Shown here: positions 2,248 through 53,228 of the stretch, in pieces
Layout of the letters: each line of letters opens with the position of its first letter
Position numbering within the stretch: position 1 is the first letter of the stretch
Virus record (IMG/VR): IMGVR_UViG_3300031992_000005
Coordinates: 224,001 to 288,000 of that record
Reading direction: 5' to 3' (one strand)
DNA from: a virus
Length of the DNA: 64,000 nt
The notes under the pieces: generated by a model
Database searches by the model: none
Seen by the model: the letters and a program-made list of their open reading frames with translations, nothing else
What the model was told of the DNA's origin: nothing
Program-made: the position numbers and the translations under genes

Positions 2248-2894
2248 AAATACCGTATAGTCTAAACTTAGATAATAAAAGTATTAGAAAAATTTGGTTT
2301 ATGTCTGACCTTCACTTAGGTCATAAGAACATAATTAAGTTAGGAAATCGTCCGTTTCAGAATATAGAAGAAATGGATGGTTTTATTCAGGAAAAACTGG
2401 CAGAAACCATAGAACCGGGGGATGTGGTATTTAACTTAGGTGACTTTTTCTGGAAATATACATTACCAGAAGCTGAGTCTGTACTAAAGTTAATGAAACC
2501 TCTTAAGTCTTACATGATAGCGGGGAATCATGATTCTCATGAATTATTACAAGGATTGAGGAGATATTTCAACGTTATTGCTGACAGATTAGAGGTAACT
2601 GTTATATATCAATCTGAGAAGTATTACTTGGTTATGGATCATTTTCCGCATCTTTCGTGGAATCATAAATCTAGGGGTGCATTCATGATTCATGGCCATT
2701 GTCACGGAAATATAGATAGTTTTAATCGTGATTCCATTGGAGATCTAAGGATTGATGTGGGATATGATGGAGAGCTGGCCAAGAAGACTGGATCATTTCT
2801 CATTGATTTCGAGACGATCTTAGGGGAAATGAAAAATAAAGTGGGACAACAAAGTTTCAAGGATTATGTTCAAAATAATAGTAAAACAATATGA
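2244..2894 (+). CDS. calcineurin-like metallophosphoesterase
   Basis: All signature blocks are present in order: SDLHLGH (DxH), LGDFF (GD), AGNHD (GNHD/E), IHGHCHGN (GHxH). ATGA overlap with the upstream gene. Confidence 0.8.
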   Translation: MKIPYSLNLDNKSIRKIWFMSDLHLGHKNIIKLGNRPFQNIEEMDGFIQEKLAETIEPGDVVFNLGDFFWKYTLPEAESVLKLMKPLKSYMIAGNHDSHELLQGLRRYFNVIADRLEVTVIYQSEKYYLVMDHFPHLSWNHKSRGAFMIHGHCHGNIDSFNRDSIGDLRIDVGYDGELAKKTGSFLIDFETILGEMKNKVGQQSFKDYVQNNSKTI

Positions 2895-3730
2895 AATCTA
2901 GGGAAGAACTTATTTCAGTATTTGAAGATACTAAAACTAGTATCATTGCAGGAGGTTATAAAGATCCTACAGGGCGTTGGCATGAAATACCTGATCCAGT
3001 AGCATCTATATTTTATAACACAGTATCGAAATTGAGCAAGGATGATTGCCCAGTTTTCCCAGAAACAATTATAAAAGTTGTTAATGAGGATACGTTCAAT
3101 GTAGCTGAAAAGCTTCCTGGATGTGCTGTATTGAATATGGCATCCTTCAGTTTTCCAGGTGGTGGAGTAACTAATGGGGCAAGAGCTCAAGAGGAAGAGC
3201 TTTGTAGGCGGAGTAACCTAACAAAATCCCTATATGCATTTGATCACCGAATGGCAGATGTTTATGGTCCGCCTTATGGGAATAGTACGTATCCAATCCC
3301 TATGTTTGGTGGAATATACTCAACTGGTATAACTGTTTTTAAGAGTGCTGTTTCTTATAATGGACTAATTAATCCATTCCAGTGTGACGTAATTACCGTT
3401 CCTGGACTAAAGAAACCAGTACTGGATCGAAAAACAGGAGAACTTCAGCCAAAGGATGTCATAGCATTAAAGGGAAAAATAAGAGCCATATTCAGAATGG
3501 CTATCTTAGGAAAAAATGAATCCCTTGTATTAGGGGCTCTTGGATGTGGTGCATATGGAAATCCACCTAGCCATGTAGCTAGACTATTCAAAGAAGTATT
3601 GGGTGAAGATGAGTTCGTTCATTCTTTCTCTAAGATATACTTTGCTATCCTAGAAGATACAAATAGTAGAAAAAATATTGAAGGTGGAAACCTTAAACCT
3701 TTTAAAAAAGTATTTGAAAATGGAAACTAA
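2891..3730 (+). CDS. bacterial-type PARG-like macrodomain protein (TIGR02452/DUF2263-like)
   Basis: Contains the PARG signature GGG-X7-QEE (FPGGGVTNGARAQEEELCRRS) and a downstream GALGCGAYGNPP glycine-rich loop typical of this macrodomain family. ATGA overlap with the phosphoesterase gene. Confidence 0.75.
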   Translation: MKSREELISVFEDTKTSIIAGGYKDPTGRWHEIPDPVASIFYNTVSKLSKDDCPVFPETIIKVVNEDTFNVAEKLPGCAVLNMASFSFPGGGVTNGARAQEEELCRRSNLTKSLYAFDHRMADVYGPPYGNSTYPIPMFGGIYSTGITVFKSAVSYNGLINPFQCDVITVPGLKKPVLDRKTGELQPKDVIALKGKIRAIFRMAILGKNESLVLGALGCGAYGNPPSHVARLFKEVLGEDEFVHSFSKIYFAILEDTNSRKNIEGGNLKPFKKVFENGN

Positions 3731-6411: not shown

Positions 6412-7308
6412 ATGAAACAATTGGATAGTTATGTAGAAATCTGGGATCAAGGTCCTGGAATAGAAGGCATTAAAAAGCAAATAGAAAAAGTGGGTCGAAT
6501 CTGTTATAAGTCGGAATCGAGTATAACAGAGGATTCTGCTGAAAAATTTGTAGAAAGACTGGGTAATGCAGGTCACTTAAAAGCATTTGAACAGGGAACT
6601 GTTTACCTAACATTTCCTAGGGGAACAACCTTTGATGAGACTCCAAAATCCCCTGAATTATATCTATTCTATTTCTTTAATAGATACTCCAAATGCCATA
6701 CAAGCAAAGATGACGATAATTATTATGTAACAACTAATTATCGAGTCTTAGTGGATAATGATAGAGTAGGGGACTTGAAGTACTTGACAGAGCCTAGTAA
6801 GAATCATGAGCTTCGTATTTGTGCTCATTTTATATGTGATCGTGGAGTTTCTGCTGAAGCTAATAGACATACTATGAACTCTGCTATGGAAACCTCCACT
6901 AGGTATTGCAACTACAGCTTGAATAAGTTTGGTAACGAGATTAGTGTCATTCAATCGGATGACATTGACTTGAGTAAAGCTAATTACGATGGAAAAGATT
7001 TCTTCAGAATGTGTGAAGATGTCAGATTCAGCTCTTCTAAGTGGAATGAAGTAGATCTTTGGATGTTTGGTAACCTAGCTACTGAGTTTTCTTACATGGA
7101 ATTACTAAAACGTGGCTGGAAACCTCAACAGGCTAGAAGGGTTTTACCATTGGATCTAAAAACAGAAGTATGTCATTCAGCATTTATATCAGACTGGATT
7201 CATTTCTTTGAATTAAGATCTGCACCAGATGCTCATCCTGATATGAAAAAATTAAGCGATCAACTAAAGAAACTTTTTATAGAAAGAGGCTATATAGAGC
7301 ATGAATAA
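6412..7308 (+). CDS. thyX: flavin-dependent thymidylate synthase ThyX
   Basis: A ThyX motif variant RHTMNSAMETSTRY (RHRxxSxxxxSxR pattern) plus a downstream FFELRS block. The size is typical of ThyX. Confidence 0.8.
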   Translation: MKQLDSYVEIWDQGPGIEGIKKQIEKVGRICYKSESSITEDSAEKFVERLGNAGHLKAFEQGTVYLTFPRGTTFDETPKSPELYLFYFFNRYSKCHTSKDDDNYYVTTNYRVLVDNDRVGDLKYLTEPSKNHELRICAHFICDRGVSAEANRHTMNSAMETSTRYCNYSLNKFGNEISVIQSDDIDLSKANYDGKDFFRMCEDVRFSSSKWNEVDLWMFGNLATEFSYMELLKRGWKPQQARRVLPLDLKTEVCHSAFISDWIHFFELRSAPDAHPDMKKLSDQLKKLFIERGYIEHE

Positions 7309-15586: not shown

Positions 15587-16126
15587 ATGAACAAATTACT
15601 TATATCAAGAGAATATCATAACAGTGCAATGGAAATAAATTTGGCACTAGACACATTATCAGTGCCTAAAATTGTTTTATATAAGTTAGATAAGTATTCA
15701 CGTACCGTCAAGTGGTGGAAGTTAGATAGTTGGTTAAATTGGAATTATTATCCGGAACATATAGATTTTGTAACAATAGATAATATATTTTTAACCATAG
15801 GTTATTTTAGCATGTATGAATGTAAGTACATGCCTATAAAAAAACTAACCGATAGAACTTCACTGCACTTGGCATATGCTTGTAGTAAAGAAGTAAAAAA
15901 TATAACAATTTATTATCAAAGCATGTATGAAACCTATCTAAAATTAAATAGCTTAGATAATCACCATGTGACTGTATTTAATACTAAAAAAGATCTTATT
16001 AATTTTCTGAGTGAGTTCTATAAATACATAAGGGCGGATGATGAATGCCTATATAATTTCATGTTAAATCTATTCCGAGCTAATCACCTGATAAATGAAA
16101 CTGTACCAAGAATACCGATAAAATGA
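15587..16126 (+). CDS. paralog family member 1/12 (divergent)
   Basis: LALDTLSVPKIVLY, IFLTIGYFS and a C-terminal LFRANHLI match the family blocks. Confidence 0.65.
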   Translation: MNKLLISREYHNSAMEINLALDTLSVPKIVLYKLDKYSRTVKWWKLDSWLNWNYYPEHIDFVTIDNIFLTIGYFSMYECKYMPIKKLTDRTSLHLAYACSKEVKNITIYYQSMYETYLKLNSLDNHHVTVFNTKKDLINFLSEFYKYIRADDECLYNFMLNLFRANHLINETVPRIPIK

Positions 16127-16620
16127 AAAGTGACATTAAAGGAAGATTAGTATTACTCATTACTGAACGCAAACAAGAACTTGATTTTAAATACTGCAGT
16201 GTATGGGTAACTATAGAGAACTTAGTTCTTTCTAATTCAGGTAGTTACATATTTAATGCAGGCAAAAAAGATTATCCAGCTAGAATTGAAATACCAACCA
16301 CAAATGCAGATAAGTATCAGGTAGATCCCCTAAATCTATTAAATATAGGAAGCAACTTAGGATATCACCTGGGGTGGATTTCATTACCACAGTTTAAGTG
16401 TTTTTCTAGATGGAATGCAAAAAAGTGGTCAGCCAATCCTAGGATACGAGACTATAGCTTATGTTTCGCAAGAATTCCTTGGGGAAGTAGAAAATACTAT
16501 ATTTATGAATTAACTGGGGATGAATTAGCTCAGCTTTTCAAAAATTATATTAATACGATGGATAGCTATGCTATTCGAAACATATTAACGGAAATATTGA
16601 AGTATAATAAAGTAATATGA
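16123..16620 (+). CDS. paralog family member 2/12 (most divergent; membership tentative)
   Basis: Same size, position and ATGA coupling as the others. Only weak block similarity (VWVTIENLVLS, LLNIGSNLGY). Confidence 0.55.
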   Translation: MKSDIKGRLVLLITERKQELDFKYCSVWVTIENLVLSNSGSYIFNAGKKDYPARIEIPTTNADKYQVDPLNLLNIGSNLGYHLGWISLPQFKCFSRWNAKKWSANPRIRDYSLCFARIPWGSRKYYIYELTGDELAQLFKNYINTMDSYAIRNILTEILKYNKVI

Positions 16621-17153
16621 ATACTGAATTAATCGTCTATAAAGATTACACTTCTACTAATAACTTTATTTATTTTATAAATTTCAATAAATTCAAAATC
16701 CCGATTGATCTATTAGATAACTCTCATTTGTGGGGAAACAGAATAATTATATCATCCTCTACAGCAATAGGTAAGCAGGTATTATCGGATAACTATCATA
16801 GATTGTACTTGGAAGAGTTTCCAGATATTGCCTTTTGCTTAGGCCAAAGTCCCAGTAATTTTAAGCACATGACTAAACGACAGTTGCATCTTAAGTTTCT
16901 GGGGAATCCTCGTTTTCTTGCTTCAACAAGCCAAGTATTCTATCGAAATTTTAAATGGAAATATTCGACAGGTGCACCTTGGGATTTATCAAGGAGTAGT
17001 ATATTCTTGTTTCAATCTTTACCATTAGATAAATGGTTCGTAGGTAAAATAATTTATGATTACCTATTCCGCGTTAAATTGCGTAATTGCACTCTTCCAG
17101 AAGATCTTAAAATCGCAGAACGCATATTTAACCTGAATGAGTGTTATGAATAG
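16617..17153 (+). CDS. paralog family member 3/12
   Basis: FIYFINFNKFKIPIDLL, MTKRQLHLKFL, AERIFNLNECYE. Confidence 0.7.
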   Translation: MNTELIVYKDYTSTNNFIYFINFNKFKIPIDLLDNSHLWGNRIIISSSTAIGKQVLSDNYHRLYLEEFPDIAFCLGQSPSNFKHMTKRQLHLKFLGNPRFLASTSQVFYRNFKWKYSTGAPWDLSRSSIFLFQSLPLDKWFVGKIIYDYLFRVKLRNCTLPEDLKIAERIFNLNECYE

Positions 17154-17580
17154 TGTTGAATTGACTCTATTTAAGAGATATGACGAAACTCATATGATTA
17201 TATATTTCCTAAAATTCGGGAAAATTACTTTACCTAATATCTCAAACCCTGTACGTGAAGTTTACTTAGACATTGGATTTGAATATTACAGGACTAAACA
17301 TGTTACATTAAGATATCTTCTGAACAACTTAGATTCGATCGTATATCGCTTTTCATTACCTAAGTTCAGGGGATACAATCAGGTAATCAGAAAGTTTAAA
17401 GTCTATAAAGACCCATTCCAAGTTATTTACTTAAAGGGGAAAGCTCTGGATAATGTATTAGAAAATTATCTTCAAGTAATCGATGATTGTTTAGAATATA
17501 CTAGTGTGAAAGAATATTCATTAATCAGGGACATTATCGTATGTAATCGAACCAATGATACAAGAACTATATATTATTAA
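17137..17580 (+). CDS. paralog family member 4/12
   Basis: MIIYFLKFGKITLPNIS, VYLDIGFEYY. The C-terminus is divergent. Confidence 0.65.
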   Translation: MSVMNSVELTLFKRYDETHMIIYFLKFGKITLPNISNPVREVYLDIGFEYYRTKHVTLRYLLNNLDSIVYRFSLPKFRGYNQVIRKFKVYKDPFQVIYLKGKALDNVLENYLQVIDDCLEYTSVKEYSLIRDIIVCNRTNDTRTIYY

Positions 17581-18010
17581 TCTATTCGCAGTTAGAGATT
17601 TATACATGCACTATAAACGCTTATTGATTCCAAAATTATTTATATCTGCAGAAAAAAACGGTAGCTATAGAATTGGGGGTTATAAAAAAGATGACACATC
17701 TTCACTATTGGAAGTGAAAGACGTATATCTATATATGGGTTTTCATTTCTATGAAAATGATAAGGAAACCCAAACTATGAAATTCCTATCCCCTAGGAAA
17801 GTAAAAAACCTAATTTTTACATACCGTCCGGGTGCTGGGATTGGTAGATTTTATAAGAGTTTATTACCTACACCAACATATAGGTATTATCAAAAGACTG
17901 AATTAACGCCAGATCAGCTAGTTTATCTTAACCATATATATGTTCAAAATACAGCAAACGGTATCAGAGAAAAATTTCAGGAAATATTTAAACTGAATAA
18001 TATATGGTAG
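17555..18010 (+). CDS. paralog family member 5/12
   Basis: LYMHYKRLLIPKLF, VYLYMGFHFY, FQEIFKLNNIW. Confidence 0.7.
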   Translation: MIQELYIINLFAVRDLYMHYKRLLIPKLFISAEKNGSYRIGGYKKDDTSSLLEVKDVYLYMGFHFYENDKETQTMKFLSPRKVKNLIFTYRPGAGIGRFYKSLLPTPTYRYYQKTELTPDQLVYLNHIYVQNTANGIREKFQEIFKLNNIW

Positions 18011-18483
18011 AACTATGTATTTTTAAGGGAAGTGTATTCCGGAGTTTCCTAGATATATACTTATATTTCTCTGAATTAAAAATTCCTGAGGTTTTTTTAT
18101 CTAGTACAGCTAAGAAAGTAGAAATTTTATCCGAATCCTCTACTAATTCTGATGAGATACTAACCTTCAATAATCTTTACCTGAGAATAGGTTATGTATA
18201 TAGTTCACAGGAAAGAATAAAGTCAATAACTTATAATTATTTTAAGAAAAAAATGTTAGGTAATCTATCACATGCAGTAGCAACAGAACTACTCTATGAT
18301 ATTCCTAGAACACCTTATTCATTTCCATTTCAGAGAATACAGATACCAGATGAATTGGTAGGTAGTATATTGAAACTTCATATTGAGCAGCTCTACTCCT
18401 TAGATATGTCAGAATACACTAGTGTATATAAAAAATCCGTTCATAGATGTGAGGAAATATTTAAACTGAATGATATATGGTAG
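18004..18483 (+). CDS. paralog family member 6/12 (recent triplet)
   Basis: MVELCIFKG..., IYLYFSELKIPEVF, NLYLRIGYVY, CEEIFKLNDIW. 7-nt ATGGTAG overlap. Confidence 0.75.
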   Translation: MVELCIFKGSVFRSFLDIYLYFSELKIPEVFLSSTAKKVEILSESSTNSDEILTFNNLYLRIGYVYSSQERIKSITYNYFKKKMLGNLSHAVATELLYDIPRTPYSFPFQRIQIPDELVGSILKLHIEQLYSLDMSEYTSVYKKSVHRCEEIFKLNDIW

Positions 18484-18959
18484 AACTATGTATCTTTAAG
18501 GGACATTCAAACTTTTTTCCAGCTCTTATGTTAGATATATATTTACATTTCTCTGAATTAAAAATTCCTAAGGTTTTTATATATAGTACATATGAGAAAG
18601 TAGTAATTTTATCTGACTCCTCTACTAATTCTAATGATGAGATACTAACCTTTAATAATCTTTACTTGAAGATAGGTCATATATCTAGTTCACAAGAAAG
18701 ATTTAAACAAATGACCTACAATTACTTTAAGAAAAAGATGTTAGGTAATCTATTATACGCTATGGCAACAGAACTTTACCGTGATATTCCAAAAGAACTC
18801 TTCTTATTTCAGGAAATACAGATACCAGGTGAATTGGTAGGTAGTATATTGAAACACTACATCGAGCACTTTTATTCTACGGAGAGCGTACTTGGTGATA
18901 TATATATTAAATTCACCCGTATATATGAAGAGATATTTAAACTGAATAATATATGGTAG
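18477..18959 (+). CDS. paralog family member 7/12 (recent triplet)
   Basis: MVELCIFKG..., IYLHFSELKIPKVF, NLYLKIGHIS, YEEIFKLNNIW. 7-nt ATGGTAG overlap. Confidence 0.75.
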   Translation: MVELCIFKGHSNFFPALMLDIYLHFSELKIPKVFIYSTYEKVVILSDSSTNSNDEILTFNNLYLKIGHISSSQERFKQMTYNYFKKKMLGNLLYAMATELYRDIPKELFLFQEIQIPGELVGSILKHYIEHFYSTESVLGDIYIKFTRIYEEIFKLNNIW

Positions 18960-19447
18960 AACTATGTATAAATAAAACAGGTGTAGATATATTCCCAGTC
19001 CGTTGGCATCAGCTAGATATATATTTATGTTTTTCTGAAATAAAAATTCCCAGGATTTTTATTTCTAGTATGGAGAAGACCGTAGAAATTTCACCAGAAT
19101 CTCCTACTCATTTTAACGATGACATATTAATCTTCAACAATATTTATTTGAAAATAGGTTATATATATAGTTTACGAGAAAGAGTGAAACTAGTGACTTA
19201 CAATTACCTTAAGAAAAAGATGTTGGATGATATGTCATCGTTGATGGCAAAAGAACTGCGCTATAATTTCCCAGAAACATCCTATTCTTTTCAGAGAATA
19301 CGACTACTAGATAAAGAAATAGAAAGTATATTGAAACATCACATCGAGTATCTTTACGCTATGAAGAACGTACTTGGTTATCTATATACTAGATATGTTT
19401 GTAGATATGAAGAAATATTCGAACTAAATGGATTATTATGCAAGTAG
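18953..19447 (+). CDS. paralog family member 8/12 (recent triplet)
   Basis: MVELCINKTG..., IYLCFSEIKIPRIF, NIYLKIGYIY, YEEIFELNGLL. Confidence 0.75.
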   Translation: MVELCINKTGVDIFPVRWHQLDIYLCFSEIKIPRIFISSMEKTVEISPESPTHFNDDILIFNNIYLKIGYIYSLRERVKLVTYNYLKKKMLDDMSSLMAKELRYNFPETSYSFQRIRLLDKEIESILKHHIEYLYAMKNVLGYLYTRYVCRYEEIFELNGLLCK

Positions 19448-19893
19448 AGTTGCGTACGTATTTGGAAGAATATAGTACCCATGTTTATTTAAGATTTCCC
19501 ACATTCAAGTTATACCATCGTTACGTTATTGAGCACAACGACGGATATCATATAGCACAAAACTCGGTGGTGTGGAGAAACCATATAATAGTAGAACAAA
19601 ATTTATATCTATTTCTAGGTGTAAAACCGTATCACGACTATAGACCAATTAAATTACAAACACGAAGACAAGTATATAATATGTTGGGACAAATATTTCA
19701 GCCTGGATTTGTTGGTCTTAGAAAAAATAATGATCACTTAGAAAAGGATTACTTTGTAAAAATAACCCTACCTGAAGAAAAAAGAAATGAAGTAGTGAAA
19801 TCACTAGTACAGAATCTTGTGCGTAATAATATTAATACTACTGCTATAGAGCAATTTAAGGAATTGCTTAAATTAAATGGTATACTTATATGA
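19438..19893 (+). CDS. paralog family member 9/12
   Basis: HVYLRFPTFKLYHRY, NLYLFLGVKPY, QTRRQVYNML, FKELLKLNGILI. Confidence 0.7.
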   Translation: MQVELRTYLEEYSTHVYLRFPTFKLYHRYVIEHNDGYHIAQNSVVWRNHIIVEQNLYLFLGVKPYHDYRPIKLQTRRQVYNMLGQIFQPGFVGLRKNNDHLEKDYFVKITLPEEKRNEVVKSLVQNLVRNNINTTAIEQFKELLKLNGILI

Positions 19894-20384
19894 AAGAAGA
19901 TATTGTAGCTAAGTTAGTTATATCTAAAGGAACTTTTTCATACTGTTTAGCAGTTAATGATATAATCGTCCCAAAAGGATGTTTTGGTAATATGCTATTC
20001 TGTGTTTATAATGATGATGAAGAAAGATTCCGTAGTCTCTCTCCCGAGTTCTCAGGGAAATTACAAGGAACAGCCCATTTACGCCTGGGAACTATAAAAG
20101 AGAGATGTAAGTATATAACTAAACGGTCATTATTTAATATAATAAAGACCTCTCCATATATACACTCCCGTTTCTTTGTTAGTAATATGCAGGTAGCAAG
20201 TTTTCAAACTATATCACTAACTGAAACTGAATTATTAGACTTAGGTTCAATTCTTTTGGGGAAAATGAGAAACCATGTTACAGAGTATTATACTCCGAAT
20301 TATGAAGCTATATTTATAGCAAACGGGATATTTAAGAAAGAAGTATTTACTCCAATAACACCATATTGGAATTATGGCAGCTAG
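19890..20384 (+). CDS. paralog family member 10/12
   Basis: YCLAVNDIIVPKGCF, AHLRLGTIKE, ITKRSLFNIIKTS, YEAIFIANGIFKK. Confidence 0.7.
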   Translation: MKEDIVAKLVISKGTFSYCLAVNDIIVPKGCFGNMLFCVYNDDEERFRSLSPEFSGKLQGTAHLRLGTIKERCKYITKRSLFNIIKTSPYIHSRFFVSNMQVASFQTISLTETELLDLGSILLGKMRNHVTEYYTPNYEAIFIANGIFKKEVFTPITPYWNYGS

Positions 20385-20865
20385 GTTAGTGTTGATTAGG
20401 TATATTGAAGATGCTATTGACTATTACCTAATGTTAGATAAAATAACTATTCCTAATTCAGCTTTAGCGACATCCGGTATTAACTTAGTTGGTTCAAATG
20501 AAGAATGGTACCTATATTTAAAAGATAATGCAGTCAATGAAATACGGAAAACGACTACTGTATTTCTTTGTCGAAGTTATAGAAATATATATAAATATAC
20601 TACTAAACGCCTTTTTTATAAGTGGCTTAGAACGACTGGCTTATATAACATAAACTCAGAACCAATATTCTATGCTCACCTAAATCATTACCAGGAAGAG
20701 ATCTTTCAATCAATCCCCCTAACAAAAACAGAACTAGAAACAATCGGAACCCTGTTTTTGGAAAGACTTTTAGATAAAACTAGGTGTTACTATACCTCGG
20801 AATTTAATGAACGAAAAGAAAAGTATGAAATACTTTTTAAAGCAAATGGGATGTATAAAAAATGA
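20374..20865 (+). CDS. paralog family member 11/12
   Basis: DYYLMLDKITIPNSAL, TTKRLFYKWLRTT, YEILFKANGMYKK. Confidence 0.7.
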   Translation: MAARLVLIRYIEDAIDYYLMLDKITIPNSALATSGINLVGSNEEWYLYLKDNAVNEIRKTTTVFLCRSYRNIYKYTTKRLFYKWLRTTGLYNINSEPIFYAHLNHYQEEIFQSIPLTKTELETIGTLFLERLLDKTRCYYTSEFNERKEKYEILFKANGMYKK

Positions 20866-21359
20866 GCGCTACTTTATTTATAGTTAAACATCCGGGTCCT
20901 CGCTCCATCTTTAATTATATTATACTGTTTGATGAAATCATTATACCAGAGGATGAGCTGGTCCGGGAGTGTATCATGATTTATGATAAACAGAATGACG
21001 CATATAAATGGCTAGCTGAGGAAACTCGTCCAGGAAAATATAAGGGAAATATTGCATTAAATATAGGTCGTGGACCAAGTAGAACTAAATTTCTGACTAA
21101 AAATATAGTTTTTAATTGGTTAAAGACTAGCAATCAGCTTAATAATTTTCCAAGATTCCTGATCAGATTAGATAAGGATTTTTGTTATTCATGGGAATAT
21201 ATATTTCAAACTATACCTTTGACAGGGGATGATCTTATTAAGATCGGAACTCGCCTTATTGATTATCCTCCTTACGAAGATATTAATAGGTATCGTTCTA
21301 CAGAATCATATAGAATTCTTTTCTCAGCAAACGGTTTATTTCCTCCCATAAATCCCTAA
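20862..21359 (+). CDS. paralog family member 12/12
   Basis: NYIILFDEIIIPEDEL, IALNIGRGPS, LTKNIVFNWLKTS, YRILFSANGLFPP. Confidence 0.7.
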   Translation: MSATLFIVKHPGPRSIFNYIILFDEIIIPEDELVRECIMIYDKQNDAYKWLAEETRPGKYKGNIALNIGRGPSRTKFLTKNIVFNWLKTSNQLNNFPRFLIRLDKDFCYSWEYIFQTIPLTGDDLIKIGTRLIDYPPYEDINRYRSTESYRILFSANGLFPPINP

Positions 21360-23597: not shown

Positions 23598-23608
23598 AAA
23601 TCTCAAAA

Positions 23609-23737
23609 GGCCTTAAAACCTTATATGTAGAGAAGCAAAACAAAAGATAATTTCCCGCTCTCTATATATTCAACGAGAGCTCCCTAAAATAAAGAATGAG
23701 TTTACAATACATTAGGGAGCTTTCTCTTTTTTTTTTC
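23609..23737 (+). ncRNA. cassette 0: promoter-like box, double hairpin, T-run (candidate short transcript)
   Basis: Box ggccttaaaaccttatatgtag (23609-23630). Hairpins gctctc/gagagc, and gagagctccctaa (23675-23687) with ttagggagctttctc (23712-23726), followed by T10. Confidence 0.3.
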
Positions 23738-23743
23738 TAAAAA

Positions 23744-23842
23744 CCCCTTAATGCCTTATATATGATTAGTAAACGCTTTATGACAAAACAACATCAGTCA
23801 ATAGGAGATCACCTGTGATAGGCATATCTCCTATTTTTTTTT
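23744..23842 (+). ncRNA. cassette 1: box CCCCTTAATGCCTTATATATG, variable AT-rich segment, conserved hairpin, T-run
   Basis: Box at 23744-23764. Hairpin ggagatcacctgtgataggcatatctcc at 23804-23831, followed by tattttttttt. Confidence 0.35.
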
Positions 23843-23845
23843 CAT

Positions 23846-23943
23846 CCCCTTAATGCCTTATATATGTAAATTTTCCATATTAAAATTGTTATTTGTTAAT
23901 AGGGAAGGGATCGGTCCGTGAGGGATAGATCCCTAATTTTTTT
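23846..23943 (+). ncRNA. cassette 2: same architecture
   Basis: Identical box at 23846-23866. Hairpin gggatcggtccgtgagggatagatccc at 23907-23933, then a T-run. Confidence 0.35.
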
Positions 23944-23945
23944 AT

Positions 23946-24046
23946 CCCTTTAAACCCTTATATATATAAGATACTCATAATAGATTTGTTTAAGGTTAAA
24001 AATTTTTTGGAGGATCGCCTGTGATAGGTATATCCTCTTTTTTTTT
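23946..24046 (+). ncRNA. cassette 3: same architecture
   Basis: Box ccctttaaacccttatatatat at 23946-23967. Hairpin ggaggatcgcctgtgataggtatatcctc at 24009-24037, then T9. Confidence 0.35.
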
Positions 24047-24049
24047 ATA

Positions 24050-24143
24050 CCCCTTAAATGCCTTATATATGTTAATAAATCAGTTATTTTTATTATATTA
24101 GTTAAACAAGGGGTCAGTCCGTGATGGATAGACCCTTTTTTTT
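24050..24143 (+). ncRNA. cassette 4: same architecture
   Basis: Box ccccttaaatgccttatatatg at 24050-24071. Hairpin ggggtcagtccgtgatggatagaccc at 24110-24135, then T8. Confidence 0.35.
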
Positions 24144-24146
24144 ATT

Positions 24147-24234
24147 CCTCTTAAATCCTTATTAAGGAATACTCTCATTTTTAAGTTTAGTTATTAGGGG
24201 ATTAGTCCGGGATGGATAGATCTCCTATTTTTTT
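24147..24234 (+). ncRNA. cassette 5: degenerate box, conserved hairpin, T-run
   Basis: Box cctcttaaatccttattaagg at 24147-24167. Hairpin ggggattagtccgggatggatagatctcc at 24197-24225, then a T-run. Confidence 0.3.
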
Positions 24235-24317
24235 ATTCACTATGTCACATGTTAGTAATTTAGTTTGACGAGAGAGGTCAGAGTCTGAGATAGATATAGG
24301 CCTCTTATTTTTTTTTG
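24235..24317 (+). ncRNA. cassette 6: no clear box, diverged hairpin, long T-run
   Basis: Hairpin gagaggtcagagtctgagatagatataggcctc at 24272-24305, followed by ttattttttttt. Confidence 0.25.
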
Positions 24318-24428
24318 GTTTTTACTATATAAGTATCAGTAGTATCCTATTTCCATAAAAATATTAGGTAAATGCGAATAATTCCCGATAAATAGACAGT
24401 TCTAGACAATAGAAGTATAATGAAATTA

Positions 24429-24461
24429 GCTTTTTGCCAAAAAAGCCGTTGAGAGATCTCT
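24429..24461. repeat. left arm of a 33-bp inverted repeat
   Basis: gctttttgccaaaaaagccgttgagagatctct. Its reverse complement matches 25052-25083 with few mismatches. It contains its own hairpin (gcttttt/aaaaagc) and the palindrome agagatctct. Confidence 0.8.
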
Positions 24462-24463
24462 AG

Positions 24464-24625
24464 AAAATATATATTATATGTTTTAAGATTTTTAGCCAAA
24501 AAAATAATATAAAATTGGAAAATTCTATTGAATATTTAATAGAATTAACCATAGAAATATTATAAAATTTCTATATTTTTTATTTTTCAAAAATCGATAG
24601 CCATAAAAATATATTAAAAATATTA
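24464..24625 (+). repeat. direct repeat copy 1 (~160 bp, approximate ends) with three AGCCA[TA]A-type boxes
   Basis: Aligns with 24869-25033 at an offset of about 405-408 bp. Shared strings are ttttaagatttttagcc, (a/c)ccatagaaata and atcgatagccataaaaata. Boxes at about 24494, 24549 and 24599. Confidence 0.7.
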
Positions 24626-24652
24626 TAAAAATTATAATATAAGCATTCCATA

Positions 24653-24827
24653 GGGATCTCTCCTTTCAGTCAAGATCCACTCCAGCTAAAGCTGGGGAGT
24701 ACTAATTGAAAGAGATTAGAATTTCTTCAAGTTCTTAGAGAGAAAAAATATATAATATCTTCTCTTAGTAATTCCCAGGAATCCCAAAGGGATTTCTGAA
24801 CTGGATGCCGACTGAAAGGAGGTATCC
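24653..24827 (+). other. structured core between the direct repeats (candidate ncRNA or origin dyad)
   Basis: A perfect 12-bp long-range pairing, ctcctttcagtc (24660-24671) with gactgaaaggag (24810-24821), extended by ggat/atcc. Internal hairpins are actccagc-taaa-gctggggagt, agagaa..ttctct and aatccc-aaa-gggatt. Confidence 0.45.
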
Positions 24828-24868
24828 GTTGTATGTATGATATATTTAATATAAAATCAATAAAAGCT

Positions 24869-25033
24869 AAAAATATATTATATATAGTTTTAAGATTTTT
24901 AGCCATAAGAATGAATAGGAATTGAAGAAATTTACCGTATATTTGTATATTTCAGCCATAGAAATAAATAGAAATTACTATGTTTTTTATATCTTAAAAA
25001 ATCGATAGCCATAAAAATAAATAGATTTTATTA
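24869..25033 (+). repeat. direct repeat copy 2 with three AGCCATA-type boxes
   Basis: See copy 1. Boxes are tagccataagaatg (about 24901), cagccatagaaata (about 24954) and tagccataaaaata (about 25008). Confidence 0.7.
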
Positions 25034-25051
25034 ATAGTTTTCAATATCTCC

Positions 25052-25083
25052 AGAGATCTCTGAACGGCTTTTTTTCAAAAAGC
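25052..25083. repeat. right arm of the inverted repeat
   Basis: agagatctctgaacggctttttttcaaaaagc is the near-perfect reverse complement of 24429-24461. Confidence 0.8.
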
Positions 25084-25111
25084 AGTATTTTTGGAGTTCA
25101 TGGGAAGTATA

Positions 25112-25128
25112 TCCCTTAATTATATAAT
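25112..25128 (+). promoter_or_regulatory. box-like motif TCCCTTAATTATATAAT upstream of gene 25156
   Basis: Resembles the cassette box CCCCTTAATGCCTTATATATG. It lies 28 nt upstream of the ATG, consistent with the box being a promoter element. Confidence 0.35.
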
Positions 25129-25155
25129 ACTTCAATAAAAATTAATTTAATAGTT

Positions 25156-27264
25156 ATGAAAATCGAAACATTAGTAGTTCCAAAAGGAATTAGATTTCTC
25201 AGTGATTGGAAAGATTATGGTTTAGAAAAATTTCCATTCAAGCATATTTTAAATAAAACAATTACAGGTTGTGGATTTACAGAATACTGTATTCACTGTA
25301 ACCTTAATATTATTCTCTGTTCTCCAAGAAAAATTCTATTAGAGAATAAAGAAGATCAAAATAGTAATTTAGTTTTTTATGCTAGAAATTTATATGAACC
25401 TATAACAAATTATGAACAAGATCTAACAAAAGAAGTAAAAAGATTAGGTTCTATAAATGGAAACTATAATTTCGAAACAGAAGAGAAAAAGAAAGAGAGG
25501 CTAGAGAAAGAAAAGAAACTTAAAGAAAAGAGAGAAGCTGCAGTATTACAATTAAAAGAATCTGTAGTAAACTATTGGAGATCTTGTCAAGAAACTCCTT
25601 TCAATGAAGCCAAACCTTGTAAGATATTGGTAACATATGATTCCTTCAGACATGTCAAGGAAGCCTTAGGAGAAGATATAGAAAAATTCTACATTGTAGT
25701 TGACGAAATGCAGTCAATTTTGGTTGACTCACGCTTCAAGTCAGACTCTGAAGTAGAGTTCGTGAAAAGAACCGAAGACCTAGAAAAGGTTTGTTTTGTT
25801 TCAGCTACGCCAGTTATGGAAAAATATCTAGATATGCTAGATGAATTCAAAGATCTTCCTTATTATAGATTAGACTGGCAGTTAGAACAACCCGATAGGG
25901 TAGTTCATCCTAAAATTAATATTGGATACTTAGGTTATGGCGGGTCTATTCAAGCAGAGATAAAGAAATTAATTAACAAATATAGATCTGATAAGGGACC
26001 CGTTTATAGAAAAGTTGACCCAATAACAGGAGAAATAAAAGAGATAAAGTCTAGGGAAGTGGTTATTTATGTAAATTCTGTGAAAGATATATGTAAAGCC
26101 ATTAAGCAAAATAAACTGACCTTAGATGAATGTAACGTACTTGTAGCTAAGACAGATAAAAATGATAAAGACCTACGAAAAGTATTTAAAATAAGAAAGA
26201 AAAAGAATATTGATTTTTGTTGTATAGGTAAAGTTCCCGGTAAAAATGATCCCAGAAAAATGTTTACATTCTGTACTAGAACTGTATACCTTGGTGCAGA
26301 TTTTTACTCAGATAATGCTCAGACGTTTGTATTTAGTAACGCTAACATAGATTCCCTAAGTGTAGATATTTCTATGGATTTACCACAAATCTTAGGCAGA
26401 CAAAGATTAGATGAAAATCCGTGGAAAAGAGAAGCCACTGTATTTATCACTCTAAAATTAGGTAGATTAACTAAAGAAATGTTTGAGAAGACCTTAGAGC
26501 AAAAAATAAAAACAACGAAGTATTATTTGAAGCTTTATAACATGTCTTCCCAAGAACTAGGTGAGGAGGAAAAATTTATAAGACTCATTAAAGTAAATAT
26601 AAAAGCTTTATATTATTCACAAGACTATGTTTCCATAGATAATCATTCCGGTAAATCACCTAAACTGGCATTTAATAACTTAGTATTAATTTCTGATATG
26701 AGAGCTTTTGAAGTTCAACAAATGAATTATGCTAATAGGTTTACAGTATTCTCTGAACTAAATCAGCAAAATTTTTCAGTAATATTAAATAACGATAAGG
26801 TCAGAGATTTATTATCCGGTTATCAAAAGCTAACTGTATTTGAAGATAGAATGAAGTTTCTTTATGAAGTACTAGAGAAAAATAAAGATAATAAAGAATT
26901 ATCAAAGTCTCTTGTAGAATCTTTTCCAACCGAACTTCAAGGTTATTTTAATGTCCTTAGCATGAAAGAAATTAGGTCAACTTCCTTTAGAAAAAATAGA
27001 TTAGAAACTATTATTAAGAACAAATTAGCTATCAAAGATGCAGAACGACTAGTAAAAAAATTAGATGAAAACTTTGTTATAGGTAAATTTTATACGAAGG
27101 CTATAGCAAGAGAAATTCTTGGGAAAATATTCGATGAGATTGGATATAAGAAAAAAGCAAGGGCATCAATGCTAAGTGAGTGGTATAATATAAAATACAC
27201 GACTCAATATGATAGCAATTCAAAGACATCTGTTTCAGGAATTTTAATCATTTCTAAGCTTTAA
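25156..27264 (+). CDS. SF2 helicase-like protein with non-canonical Walker A
   Basis: Motif II IVVDEMQS (DExx), motif III VSATP (SAT). The expected GxGKT position reads TGCGFTE, with Phe where the Walker lysine should be. The 702-aa C-terminal half is unassigned. Confidence 0.5.
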   Translation: MKIETLVVPKGIRFLSDWKDYGLEKFPFKHILNKTITGCGFTEYCIHCNLNIILCSPRKILLENKEDQNSNLVFYARNLYEPITNYEQDLTKEVKRLGSINGNYNFETEEKKKERLEKEKKLKEKREAAVLQLKESVVNYWRSCQETPFNEAKPCKILVTYDSFRHVKEALGEDIEKFYIVVDEMQSILVDSRFKSDSEVEFVKRTEDLEKVCFVSATPVMEKYLDMLDEFKDLPYYRLDWQLEQPDRVVHPKINIGYLGYGGSIQAEIKKLINKYRSDKGPVYRKVDPITGEIKEIKSREVVIYVNSVKDICKAIKQNKLTLDECNVLVAKTDKNDKDLRKVFKIRKKKNIDFCCIGKVPGKNDPRKMFTFCTRTVYLGADFYSDNAQTFVFSNANIDSLSVDISMDLPQILGRQRLDENPWKREATVFITLKLGRLTKEMFEKTLEQKIKTTKYYLKLYNMSSQELGEEEKFIRLIKVNIKALYYSQDYVSIDNHSGKSPKLAFNNLVLISDMRAFEVQQMNYANRFTVFSELNQQNFSVILNNDKVRDLLSGYQKLTVFEDRMKFLYEVLEKNKDNKELSKSLVESFPTELQGYFNVLSMKEIRSTSFRKNRLETIIKNKLAIKDAERLVKKLDENFVIGKFYTKAIAREILGKIFDEIGYKKKARASMLSEWYNIKYTTQYDSNSKTSVSGILIISKL

Positions 27265-27503: not shown

Positions 27504-27662
27504 CCTCTTTTGCCTGAACTAAATAAGATCAATTATATGATATTATTCCGAACTTCGACAATTTTATAGAAAATTCAGATATAAAACTGGAGTAATTGCG
27601 TCCATAGAAAATAACTCAATAGTAGATAAGCATTTATTGTGATAATTTAACAGATACTTCAT

Positions 27663-51002: not shown

Positions 51003-53228
51003 ATGGCACAGTGGAAAGAAACTCTTGAACCCTATATTAGAGTTCATGAGAAAATTAAGGTTGCAGCACTTAACCCAGTAGCAGGTGAAGATTTAATCAT
51101 CGGGTGTGCATTTATTTCCGATGCAGGACCATCTCTACCTACACTTATTACTAGTCAGAAGGAATTCTTAGAGACTTATTCTTCTCAGGATATTACCGAG
51201 GATTATATTACTAGTCTCGATGATTTCTATACAAACGCTACGACAGGTGGTGATCCTCATCTAGGATCTACTATGTGGCTTAATGCATATCGTTTGGCTG
51301 GTTCTAATACTCTCTTGGCAGTGCGTGCAACAAAAGCAAAGGACCTTTATTACGCTAAGACAAGCGCTTACCCTAACGACGATTATATAGTACGTGATGG
51401 GCAAGTATTAAAGAAGATAAACGTAGGTGACGGATTAAAGATTTGTTACGATAGCGATGAAGATAGTGCAGACTGGAAGAAATTAGGTTGGGCTATTAAA
51501 CTAAGAAATATCGGTATAGTAGGTAACCTAGTAACTGAAGATGGAGTTAAATATGATTATTACGTAGATAATTTGTTTGACCTAGTTGAATATCTCAATG
51601 ATACTAGTGTATTCTTTAGTCCTAATTATGAATTTCACGACAATATTAATCAGGATGACGGAACACCCCAAACCCCAAGTACAACTAAAATATCAGAAGA
51701 TGCACTTCGAAACGGTGACAAGGAGAAAAATACTGTAAAAGCAGTAGTATTTAAGGAACTTTACTTAGGTAGTCGTATCCTAGATGCACTCGACCTTACC
51801 GGCTCAACTACTGAAGAAAGCAATGCTGAATATGGACTCATGAACATAATAGTTGGTCAATCTACTTGGACATCAGGTAATGAGTCACAGCCAGTTATTG
51901 CACTAAATGATGCAAATCATTCAGGTTTTGATCAGAAGAGTACTCTTGATAAAGGCTATGTAACTAACGTGTATAATTCAGCTACTAAGCTAGAAGTTAG
52001 AATTAGACGTTTTAATCATGATGCTGTAGCTACTAAACAGTTAACTAAACCAGATTCTAGTAGGGGCGGAAATTCTCCATATACAGTAGTATTACCTAAT
52101 TCTCTTTCGGCTTTAAACGTAAAGAGGGATTTTTACGAAATTGCCGTTTTTGATCCAAGTGTTAGTGGAGAATCCTTGTATTTTAACCTAGGTACTGTAC
52201 TGAGCTTAGGTGATATGGAATTAGTTGATATAAATAATTCCCTTAAGATGGTACAGATAACTTTGCCTGATAAACTTAGTGATCTTGGATTAGATTATTA
52301 TGGCTCAGCAGGTTCTACTCAGGAGTACTATTACGATTTAAAGCTAGATCCCGATAACACATCTCTTCTAGATGTATCCAACTCTGATATACTCAAGGCA
52401 TTAGATCAGATTCCTCTTAACGAAGTTTATACTGTAGAGGGACTCACTGACCTTGGTTGTACAGAGCCAATGGTTCAGTCTTACATGGCTAATATGGCTA
52501 TTAACGATAACTTCTTCTATCCAATTTCAACAGTTAATAGCACAAACTACTTAGCTATCGCTAATTCTATCCTACGTATTAGTCAGGATTTCTATAAGCT
52601 GTATGCAAGTGCACCTTGGGACGTGGATACTGGCACAATGGGTTGGAAGTTCTATTGCTCACCTAGTGTTCTTTACTGGGAAACCGTAGGTAGAAACAGA
52701 CGTCTTGGTAGAGAGTTTGCTCCAGTTCTTGGTCAGACTAATGGTATTGCACAATATCAGAAGCCTGTAGCTGAATTCAATAAGAAGACCCGTCAGCTAC
52801 TCCTTTCTAAGAAGATCAATACTGTTCTTTGGGATGTTCAGACTCAAGCTTGGGATTGGAACGACAACTATACAAAGCAGACTGAAAACAACATTATGTC
52901 TGATGAGGCTAATAGCCGCCTGATGATTCGTATTAGCAAGGCTATGCCAGTACTTCTCCGTCAGTTTATTGGTAGAAGAATTGGTGCTGTCCTTTGGAAT
53001 GACATGTATAATGTAATCGACTACTGGTTTAAGACTACTATTCTAGGCATGACTTATACAATTGATGGTTATAGAATTACAATTGATGAGTCTAACAATA
53101 CCCCAGAAGATGCTCGTGCAAATCGAGTGAACGTCTTAGTGGAAGTTCGTTATCAGAGAGCTGCTAAGTATATTGAAGTTTATAACAACGCATTCGACGT
53201 TGGTATGGAATTCGACGGCATTATGTAA
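51003..53228 (+). CDS. contractile tail sheath protein (T4 gp18-like)
   Basis: N-terminal GPSLPTLITSQKEFLETY. C-terminal ITIDESNNTPEDARANRVNVLVEVRYQRAAKYIEVYN parallels T4 gp18 CDTTNNTPSVIDRNEFVATFYIQPARSINYITLNF. Confidence 0.8.
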   Translation: MAQWKETLEPYIRVHEKIKVAALNPVAGEDLIIGCAFISDAGPSLPTLITSQKEFLETYSSQDITEDYITSLDDFYTNATTGGDPHLGSTMWLNAYRLAGSNTLLAVRATKAKDLYYAKTSAYPNDDYIVRDGQVLKKINVGDGLKICYDSDEDSADWKKLGWAIKLRNIGIVGNLVTEDGVKYDYYVDNLFDLVEYLNDTSVFFSPNYEFHDNINQDDGTPQTPSTTKISEDALRNGDKEKNTVKAVVFKELYLGSRILDALDLTGSTTEESNAEYGLMNIIVGQSTWTSGNESQPVIALNDANHSGFDQKSTLDKGYVTNVYNSATKLEVRIRRFNHDAVATKQLTKPDSSRGGNSPYTVVLPNSLSALNVKRDFYEIAVFDPSVSGESLYFNLGTVLSLGDMELVDINNSLKMVQITLPDKLSDLGLDYYGSAGSTQEYYYDLKLDPDNTSLLDVSNSDILKALDQIPLNEVYTVEGLTDLGCTEPMVQSYMANMAINDNFFYPISTVNSTNYLAIANSILRISQDFYKLYASAPWDVDTGTMGWKFYCSPSVLYWETVGRNRRLGREFAPVLGQTNGIAQYQKPVAEFNKKTRQLLLSKKINTVLWDVQTQAWDWNDNYTKQTENNIMSDEANSRLMIRISKAMPVLLRQFIGRRIGAVLWNDMYNVIDYWFKTTILGMTYTIDGYRITIDESNNTPEDARANRVNVLVEVRYQRAAKYIEVYNNAFDVGMEFDGIM

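Follow-up and report, generated by a model that had tools for sequence, protein, structure and literature searches.

The window analysed here comprises 64,000 nt of viral DNA (IMG/VR record IMGVR_UViG_3300031992_000005, positions 224,001-288,000), and all coordinates are given as window positions. The source is an uncultured huge phage; contigs with the same proteins reach 354 kb, so the genome is at least 354 kb, the samples holding relatives are from rumen and gut, and related contigs were binned as 'Bacilli' metagenome-assembled genomes (MAGs). The subject is a 655-bp non-coding module at 24429-25083, the right part of a gene-free region (23598-25155, 1,559 bp), which consists of two inverted arms, two direct repeats carrying three short boxes each, and a structured core between the repeats. 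The gene to the left encodes a 743-aa FtsH-like AAA+ protease (Pfam, PHROG), and the gene to the right encodes a 702-aa protein with a superfamily 2 (SF2) helicase fold; an original prediction, made from the letters of the window alone, had set the module between replication-type genes, a description that suits the right neighbour and not the left. The reading favoured here, which is put forward tentatively, is that the module serves in cis as a start site for phage DNA replication and uses a structured plus-strand transcript or an unwound strand, and that it is probably one of several such sites in the genome. Protein binding, transcription and any part in replication are inferred from the sequence and its conservation. 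The features of the region are listed below.

23598-24330: cassette array, seven tandem units of about 100 bp in the left part of the gene-free region
24350-24362, plus strand: seventh box, TTTCCATAAAAAT, lying about 72 nt before the predicted start of transcription and conserved in relatives L093 and L116
24393-24421, plus strand: predicted sigma-70-like promoter, TAGACA-17-TATAAT, 11 of 12 consensus positions
24429-24464, plus strand: left arm, with local hairpin GCTTTTTGCCAAAAAAGC, linker and palindrome AGAGATCTCT
24465-24640, plus strand: left direct repeat, three 53-bp units, 12% G+C
24493-24505, plus strand: box 1, TAGCCAAAAAAAT
24546-24558, plus strand: box 2, TAACCATAGAAAT
24598-24610, plus strand: box 3, TAGCCATAAAAAT
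24654-24827, plus strand: structured core, closed by a 17-pair helix, multi-branched inside, with three or more hairpins
24869-25040, plus strand: right direct repeat, three units of about 53 bp
24900-24912, plus strand: box 4, TAGCCATAAGAAT
24953-24965, plus strand: box 5, CAGCCATAGAAAT
25006-25018, plus strand: box 6, TAGCCATAAAAAT
25049-25083, plus strand: right arm, with palindrome, linker and local hairpin GCTTTTTTTCAAAAAGC, retained in type B relatives (see below)
25084-25094, plus strand: U-rich tract, AGTATTTTTGG, directly 3' of the right arm, a candidate transcript 3' end
25113-25128, plus strand: cassette-like box, CCCTTAATTATATAAT, conserved, 28 nt before the start codon of the helicase gene
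25156-27264, plus strand: gene for the SF2-helicase-fold protein, 702 aa, with motifs TGCGFTE, DEFQ, SAT and QxxGRxxR

The 702-aa protein served to trace relatives through its homologues, which yielded five module-bearing lineages. Consistent with the expectation that it would be kept in related genomes, the module was found in every related lineage recovered (rumen huge phages), with its left half missing from one of two layouts. The layout of the window, type A, is shared by L087/L091 (99.8% identical over the intergenic region), L093 and L116/L117. Type B was seen in L002 and L094, from two samples, and has the order IMPDH gene, 165-aa open reading frame (ORF), about 140 nt of unrelated sequence, core, right repeat, right arm and helicase gene. 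In these two loci (L002:1679-1850, L094:3361-3530) the IMPDH gene and the 165-aa ORF stand where type A has the FtsH-like gene, cassettes, left arm and left repeat. The two layouts part about 35 nt before the core, and a disrupted box 3 may survive in the new flank as AAAAAATCG...ATAGCC...ATAAAA. Between lineages, identity was 94-99% in the core, 85-98% in the promoter block, 83-97% in the arms, 68-84% in the left repeat and 67-70% in the right repeat. When the helicase gene of the window was compared with that of L116 or L093, the protein was 86-89% identical and the third codon positions were 75-79% identical, a value well below that of the core. Short-read contigs of the locus from many samples (L001, L003-L005, L088-L090, L092, L113 and L115) end within the cassettes or the module, two of them at the same base (window 24793); these breaks probably reflect strain variation and repeats, and the region is likely under-represented in assemblies.

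The direct repeats and boxes of the original prediction were confirmed. The two imperfect repeats align at 24480-24625 and 24887-25033 with an offset of 407-408 bp and 74-78% identity, and the three boxes in each follow one another at 53/52 and 53/53 bp, all on the plus strand. When both strands of the 64 kb were searched with a loose box pattern, two matches were obtained beyond the seven listed (27599 and 57297), none on the minus strand, and the flanks of the match at 27599 had no further likeness to the module boxes. The extended consensus, tTAgCCATAAAAATAnatnnAAAtT, spans about 24 bp and is composed of two ATARAAAT-like halves one helical turn apart. Across six lineages, 12 of 13 box intervals measured 52-53 bp, a spacing of five helical turns, unlike the usual two. 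In the right repeat of L093 the intervals were 64 and 43 bp, with the middle box shifted by about one helical turn and the outer distance kept. Box sequence was retained while the spacer DNA drifted to the repeat identities given above, and at 67-70% the spacers are at or below third-codon-position identity. In keeping their spacing in this way, the boxes behave as protein-binding sites on one face of double-stranded DNA and not as folded RNA. Among all 160-bp windows of the 64 kb, the left and right repeats ranked first and second lowest in duplex stability (-0.99 and -1.03 kcal/mol/bp, against a window mean of -1.22 with a standard deviation of 0.06). Two marks of an iteron-type origin were therefore found directly in the sequence, namely at least three phased direct repeats of one site and adjacent AT-rich DNA that is easily unwound.

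Several other identities for the boxes were considered. The suggestion that they form promoter clusters found no support: TAGCCA agrees with the sigma-70 -35 hexamer at four of six positions, but the -10 partners were inconsistent, and the motif was not found ahead of other genes. The proposed kinship between the box core and the box of the neighbouring cassettes was likewise not upheld, since motif comparison separated them into two families. Some likeness to DnaA boxes was observed, in that TTAGCCATA agrees with TTATCCACA at seven of nine positions and the other module boxes at six or seven; the middle box of the left repeat at L093:3383, TTATCCATA, agrees with this bacterial DnaA-box consensus at eight of nine, which may be coincidence in AT-rich DNA. 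The conserved stretch of the box reaches well past 9 bp, the length of a DnaA box. Clustering of GATC was also examined and set aside, the nine sites being unexceptional for the window.

Phased and conserved boxes directly upstream of a gene could also mark a transcriptional control region for the helicase-like gene, in which cooperative binding of a regulator to the boxes would loop or coat the DNA and so turn the gene on or off, with the core acting as a spacer or roadblock. The centre of the seventh box lies at about -72 relative to the start of the sigma-70-like promoter, a usual position for an activator. This explanation is nevertheless improbable: it leaves unexplained both the 94-99% conservation and fold of the core and the covarying arms described below, six sites over 650 bp exceed what most operators need, and between the module and the gene lies a conserved promoter-like box of the gene's own. 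That box, CCCTTAATTATATAAT at 25113-25128, may be the promoter of the helicase gene.

The box layout also recalls other DNA-handling sites. In the pac sites of P1 and SPP1 and in the centromere-like parC site of R1, two direct-repeat clusters flank a distinct centre; the module has two such clusters around a distinct centre, and its box array is unique to this place in the 64 kb. A packaging or centromere-like function is nonetheless judged very unlikely. Pac sites of the P1 or SPP1 type lie within or next to the small-terminase gene; no terminase or partition gene was recognised beside the module with Pfam and PHROGs, an absence that is weak evidence because most proteins of the phage match nothing. 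The structural genes start more than 13 kb downstream (tail sheath gene at 51003), a partition site would be of no obvious use to a lytic huge phage, and the plus-strand pairing signal of the core and arms would go unexplained.

Between the repeats, the GC-richer core with a long-range closing pairing (24660-24671 with 24810-24821) was borne out, and the closing helix was found to extend to 17 pairs. The predicted fold has an energy of -69 kcal/mol, against -44.6 +/- 4.3 for shuffled sequences (z = -5.7, on either strand), and the whole module folds with its arms paired (z = -13, 20 shuffles). About 13 columns of the core alignment are variable, with changes roughly twice as frequent in unpaired as in paired columns. 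With the plus-strand fold, five pairs vary; seven one-sided changed cells keep the pairing (G-C to G.U and similar) and one breaks it, whereas with the minus-strand fold four changed cells keep the pairing and eight break it. These counts were made on the same sequences that gave the consensus structures, and they come from five lineages with few substitutions. On the covariation across relatives that had been proposed as a check, one-sided changes fit plus-strand pairing, but double compensatory changes in the core numbered zero among about seven independent substitutions, so the evidence for plus-strand pairing is no more than suggestive.

No Rfam family was matched by the module at gathering score. 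The best match of the core was RT-14 RNA (RF02921), at 29.1 bits against a gathering score of 48.1 (E = 0.16). RT-14 RNA, which lies beside reverse-transcriptase genes, is of similar size (144 nt, against about 175 nt for the core) and has paired ends and several matching single-stranded stretches, but many pairs of the model are unformed in the core. A retron non-coding RNA (ncRNA) of RT-14 type was rejected, the score lying under the gathering threshold and no RVT domain being found in the window ORFs scanned with Pfam; that scan is given as 28 window ORFs, including both neighbours, all 33 plus-strand ORFs of at least 200 aa and a 466-aa minus-strand ORF, with many shorter ORFs left out. 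A covariance model of the core found no match in 80 distant loci or elsewhere in the window, and a scan for the closing helix with a 138-nt gap found nothing in viral contigs or genome contigs. Eighteen loci from a metagenome scan with a 100-130-nt gap (L095-L112) were discarded as chance inverted repeats that lack similarity to the module.

No conserved ORF was found in the module, in line with the original prediction. Each module box reads ATGGCTA on the minus strand, and a 59-aa minus-strand ORF (24727-24906) begins in box 4 and runs into the core. It was considered as a small core protein and rejected: it is intact in L093 and broken in three of five lineages (L116, L002 and L094), and four of six substitutions change the amino acid.

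The inverted arms pair between 24432-24464 and 25049-25081 (33 nt, 85% complementary), with an extension between 24429-24443 and 25069-25083, and each contains the GCTTTTT..AAAAAGC hairpin and the palindrome AGAGATCTCT, as had been described. A 21-nt arm motif occurs at these two sites only in the 64 kb, with 0 expected by chance. The arm-arm duplex was calculated at -41 to -43 kcal/mol in three type A lineages. Comparison of the window with L116 revealed one compensatory double change in the arm linker (A-T to G-C; left T to C, right A to G) and two further arm changes, each giving G.U on the plus strand and A.C on the minus strand.

The arms are closely framed by predicted transcription signals. 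The promoter at 24393-24421 is the sole intergenic 11/12 match in the window and is kept as TAGACA or TAGATA in L093, L116 and L117; it ends 7 nt before the left arm, and its predicted start, at about 24428, was taken as the first base of that arm. At the other end, the U-rich tract AGTATTTTTGG is invariant in four aligned type A sequences (window, L093, L116 and L117) and is present in L094, and from its sequence it may act as a terminator (25084-25094). A terminator scan called no canonical terminator after the core or the module, the 3' end having only a weak AT-rich hairpin and the U-tract.

Inverted arms with an internal palindrome that enclose a non-coding segment could in principle bound an invertible DNA switch or a miniature inverted-repeat transposable element. 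This possibility has been largely refuted and is given hardly any weight. A single orientation was found in all assemblies that cross an arm (five full-length copies and about eight partial contigs), and no recombinase domain was detected in the neighbouring genes tested (Pfam, PHROG). The recombination site once offered as an alternative is unsupported. Target-site duplications are absent from the arm ends, each arm is single-copy in the window, the boxes at both ends are direct and not mirrored, and type B is not a precise excision.

The 702-aa protein encoded immediately downstream had no match in Pfam or PHROG. Its AlphaFold2 model (pLDDT, the predicted local distance difference test, 78) was matched by Foldseek to SF2 helicases, including Brr2, DEAD-box proteins and the herpes simplex virus 1 (HSV-1) origin-binding protein, which ranks seventh in the PDB fold search (9hgj). 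Among the top matches to viral models are many herpesvirus and giant-virus 'replication origin-binding proteins'. The 702-aa protein is the likely partner of the module.

The protein belongs to a large multi-copy family (more than 4,600 members). At least five or six copies were counted on each of the human-gut contigs of about 340 kb, and the 376-kb contig JAGAYY010000025.1 (L118-L125, L128 and L133) carries nine helicase paralogues 26-60 kb apart, with a coefficient of variation of spacing of 0.21; a value that low arose with a frequency of 2.5e-5 in 200,000 random placements. This contig is labelled as a 'Bacilli bacterium' MAG and resembles a huge phage genome. A search downstream of the helicase gene of the window reached about 70 kb (window coordinates) and found no further paralogue. 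Ahead of the helicase paralogues, the ORF-free region has a median length of 613 bp, and in the two paralogue groups examined it holds a structured element with compensatory changes (five pairs among 13 sequences and six pairs among four). The first type of element (L018:3400-3655 and homologues, about 245 nt, from human-gut phages of about 340 kb) is absent from Rfam, has its G.U pairs in the sense orientation, and reaches 85-97% identity between paralogues that share about 62% at the protein level. The second type (L118:2134-2222, L119, L120, L121 and L124) consists of a pyrimidine-rich loop closed by a 10-bp helix, with a hairpin after it; its six compensatory pairs were found among four paralogues of one genome, and a palindrome of about 45 nt precedes it in L118, L120 and L121. 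Because these elements are structured and lack both box arrays and similarity to the core, the combination of a structured element and a helicase gene is taken, from sequence comparison, as the family trait, with the phased boxes and arms special to the lineage of the window.

These observations bear on the most serious rival explanation, a free-standing ncRNA unit that takes no direct part in replication. Host RNA polymerase would transcribe about 660 nt, from about 24428 to the right-arm hairpin and the U-tract; the 33-bp helix would join the two ends of this RNA, and the 175-nt core would be its functional part. As a counterpart of the structured elements ahead of the paralogues, the RNA could partner or regulate the helicase-like protein, with the boxes serving as operators. 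The structured-RNA alternative, already raised in the original prediction, has gained support from the plus-strand substitutions of the core and arms, the conserved promoter and the covarying elements before the paralogues. The promoter ends 7 nt before the left arm, the arms stay paired through one double change and two G.U changes that fit the plus strand only, core substitutions favour the plus strand by 7:1 with unpaired columns the more variable, and elements upstream of distant paralogues have five and six compensatory pairs, with G.U pairs in the sense orientation. The module also stands at the end of an array of seven box-plus-terminator cassettes, and the best fold matches of the protein include DEAD-box and Ski2-type RNA helicases. 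Against it stand the core without a double compensatory change, the missing canonical terminator after core and module, the failure to match an Rfam family, and type B, which has neither promoter nor left arm. Furthermore, the repeats, about half of the supposed RNA, are neutral apart from the boxes, and their insertions and deletions come in helical-turn steps, which is behaviour at the level of DNA. The ncRNA unit is rated somewhat less likely than the initiation site.

The module thus shows two layers: the boxes, their phasing and the low duplex stability belong to DNA, and the core and arms belong to a single strand of plus sense. Initiation of replication through a transcript or an unwound strand was placed first because it covers both layers, the helicase neighbour and the even spacing of the paralogues. 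Under this proposal, a sequence-specific protein would bind the six boxes and the seventh at 24350, the candidates being the adjacent SF2-helicase-fold protein or another phage factor. The bipartite boxes of about 24 bp would lie on one helix face, three in each AT-rich 160-bp repeat, and the repeats are the DNA of the region that melts most easily. The core would then act in single-stranded form on the plus strand, either within a transcript from the promoter at 24393-24421 or on the unwound strand, and would serve as a primer, as an R-loop former or as a helicase-loading structure.

The idea of a replication origin, which the original prediction had also advanced, therefore keeps the phased repeats of protein-binding type, the least stable DNA of the window, the SF2-helicase neighbour and the even paralogue spacing, and has a number of results to answer for. 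Classical iteron origins are contiguous arrays of units of about 20-22 bp, unlike the 53-bp spacing of the module. The fold match is generic for SF2 helicases (template modelling score about 0.27), the match to the origin-binding protein is no better than those to the RNA helicases Brr2 and Mss116, and the C-terminal 262 residues of the 702-aa protein gave no significant fold match. Box arrays upstream of 19 distant homologues did not exceed the level of shuffled sequences, and the elements upstream of the paralogues showed no sequence or model similarity to the core of the window. Type B (L002 and L094) lacks the left arm, the left repeat and the promoter. Finally, cumulative GC skew rises without a turn through the module (24-25 kb) and the whole window; the flanking genes all have one orientation, so transcription may mask a replication skew, and a skew that is clearly bidirectional is seen in about 30% of huge phage genomes (PMC7162821).

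The proposed initiation site was compared with several known replication systems. With the iteron-type origins (P1 oriR, lambda ori, theta plasmids) and the P4 ori/crr it shares direct repeats of initiator-binding type, AT-rich DNA for opening and a nearby initiator or helicase gene. In P4, crr has two direct repeats of about 120 bp with three short sites each, a two-times-three layout; a literature search did not confirm these P4 and iteron features. The module differs in that its boxes are 52-53 bp apart and not contiguous, a 175-nt structured core lies between the two sets, and inverted arms close the whole. Its neighbour is an SF2 helicase, for which binding to the module boxes is a prediction, and not a winged-helix Rep protein or a primase-SF3 helicase.

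In the transcript-dependent origins of ColE1 (RNA II), T4 (oriF and oriG) and T7 (primary origin), a promoter fires into the origin, and a structured or persistent transcript together with easily unwound DNA starts synthesis. The module resembles these in having a predicted promoter directed into the region, a structured core and easily unwound DNA; phased box arrays and long-range arm pairing are absent from the ColE1, T4 and T7 origins, and the transcript or R-loop of the module is putative. With herpesvirus oriS/oriL and UL9, the shared features are the SF2-helicase fold (9hgj) and a dyad-symmetric element able to form a single-stranded hairpin. The herpesvirus layout was not found, as those origins have inverted boxes around an AT-rich centre and the module has direct boxes around a GC-richer one, and a UL9-type helicase has a dedicated C-terminal origin-binding domain; the C-terminal 262 aa of the phage protein gave no fold match.

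A fourth comparison is with archaeal chromosomes with several origins (Sulfolobus), in which every origin is accompanied by an initiator gene of its own. The phage arrangement is similar, with a non-coding element next to an initiator-like gene in several dispersed pairs, which are evenly spaced in the 376-kb relative; the archaeal initiator is Orc1/Cdc6, whereas the phage family is an SF2 helicase, the phage pairs are candidate origins only, and different phage paralogues can share a near-identical upstream element, unlike the archaeal case. A more far-reaching proposal, advanced as speculation, is that a two-part unit of a structured single-stranded element and a cis-acting SF2 helicase, repeated about every 40 kb in huge phages of 350-400 kb, constitutes a multi-origin system with a dedicated initiator for each origin. 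As a similarly speculative part of that proposal, the unit would in this lineage also have gained the phased binding-site arrays and the long-range closing helix. To our knowledge, multiple origins with dedicated initiators are known from archaea and eukaryotes and not from phages.

The surroundings of the module were also annotated. Each cassette of the array to its left consists of a box, CC(C/T)TTAA..CCTTATATA, about 50 nt, a GC-rich hairpin with a GNRA-type loop and a run of 7-10 T; the cassette at 24167-24240 is missing from L116 and L117. By their sequence the cassettes resemble small promoter-terminator units and are possibly small RNA genes. Their sole Rfam match was a weak one to FopS (E = 1), which was rejected as membership, and the cassette box was also rejected as a general promoter, the motif being nearly restricted to the array. 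The gene content of the window includes a tail sheath, ThyX, poly(ADP-ribose) glycohydrolase (PARG), a DEAD-type helicase and a weak DnaB-like match, and most proteins are of unknown family; ThyX, the DEAD-type helicase and the weak DnaB-like match lie 11-19 kb upstream of the module. A protein with a microbial-type PARG domain is encoded at 2891-3730 and the ThyX-type thymidylate synthase at 6412-7308. Twelve tandem paralogous ORFs of 147-179 aa that match no family occupy 15587-21359, and one member of their family is the left neighbour of the core in type B (L002, L094). A search for tRNA and tmRNA genes found none, and among GenBank phages no DNA match was obtained, with protein matches only 21-31% identical.

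In huge phages (>200 kb) the start and organisation of replication are largely unknown, and we know of no origin defined for this uncultured gut and rumen lineage. The module offers a conserved candidate site with sharp limits, in which the boxes, the structured core and the partner gene are defined and at which the choice between an origin and an RNA has become testable. If the RNA explanation is true, the core and its counterparts upstream of the paralogues would be new RNA families tied to a helicase family. If the multi-origin proposal is true, these would be phages with several origins, each with a dedicated initiator.

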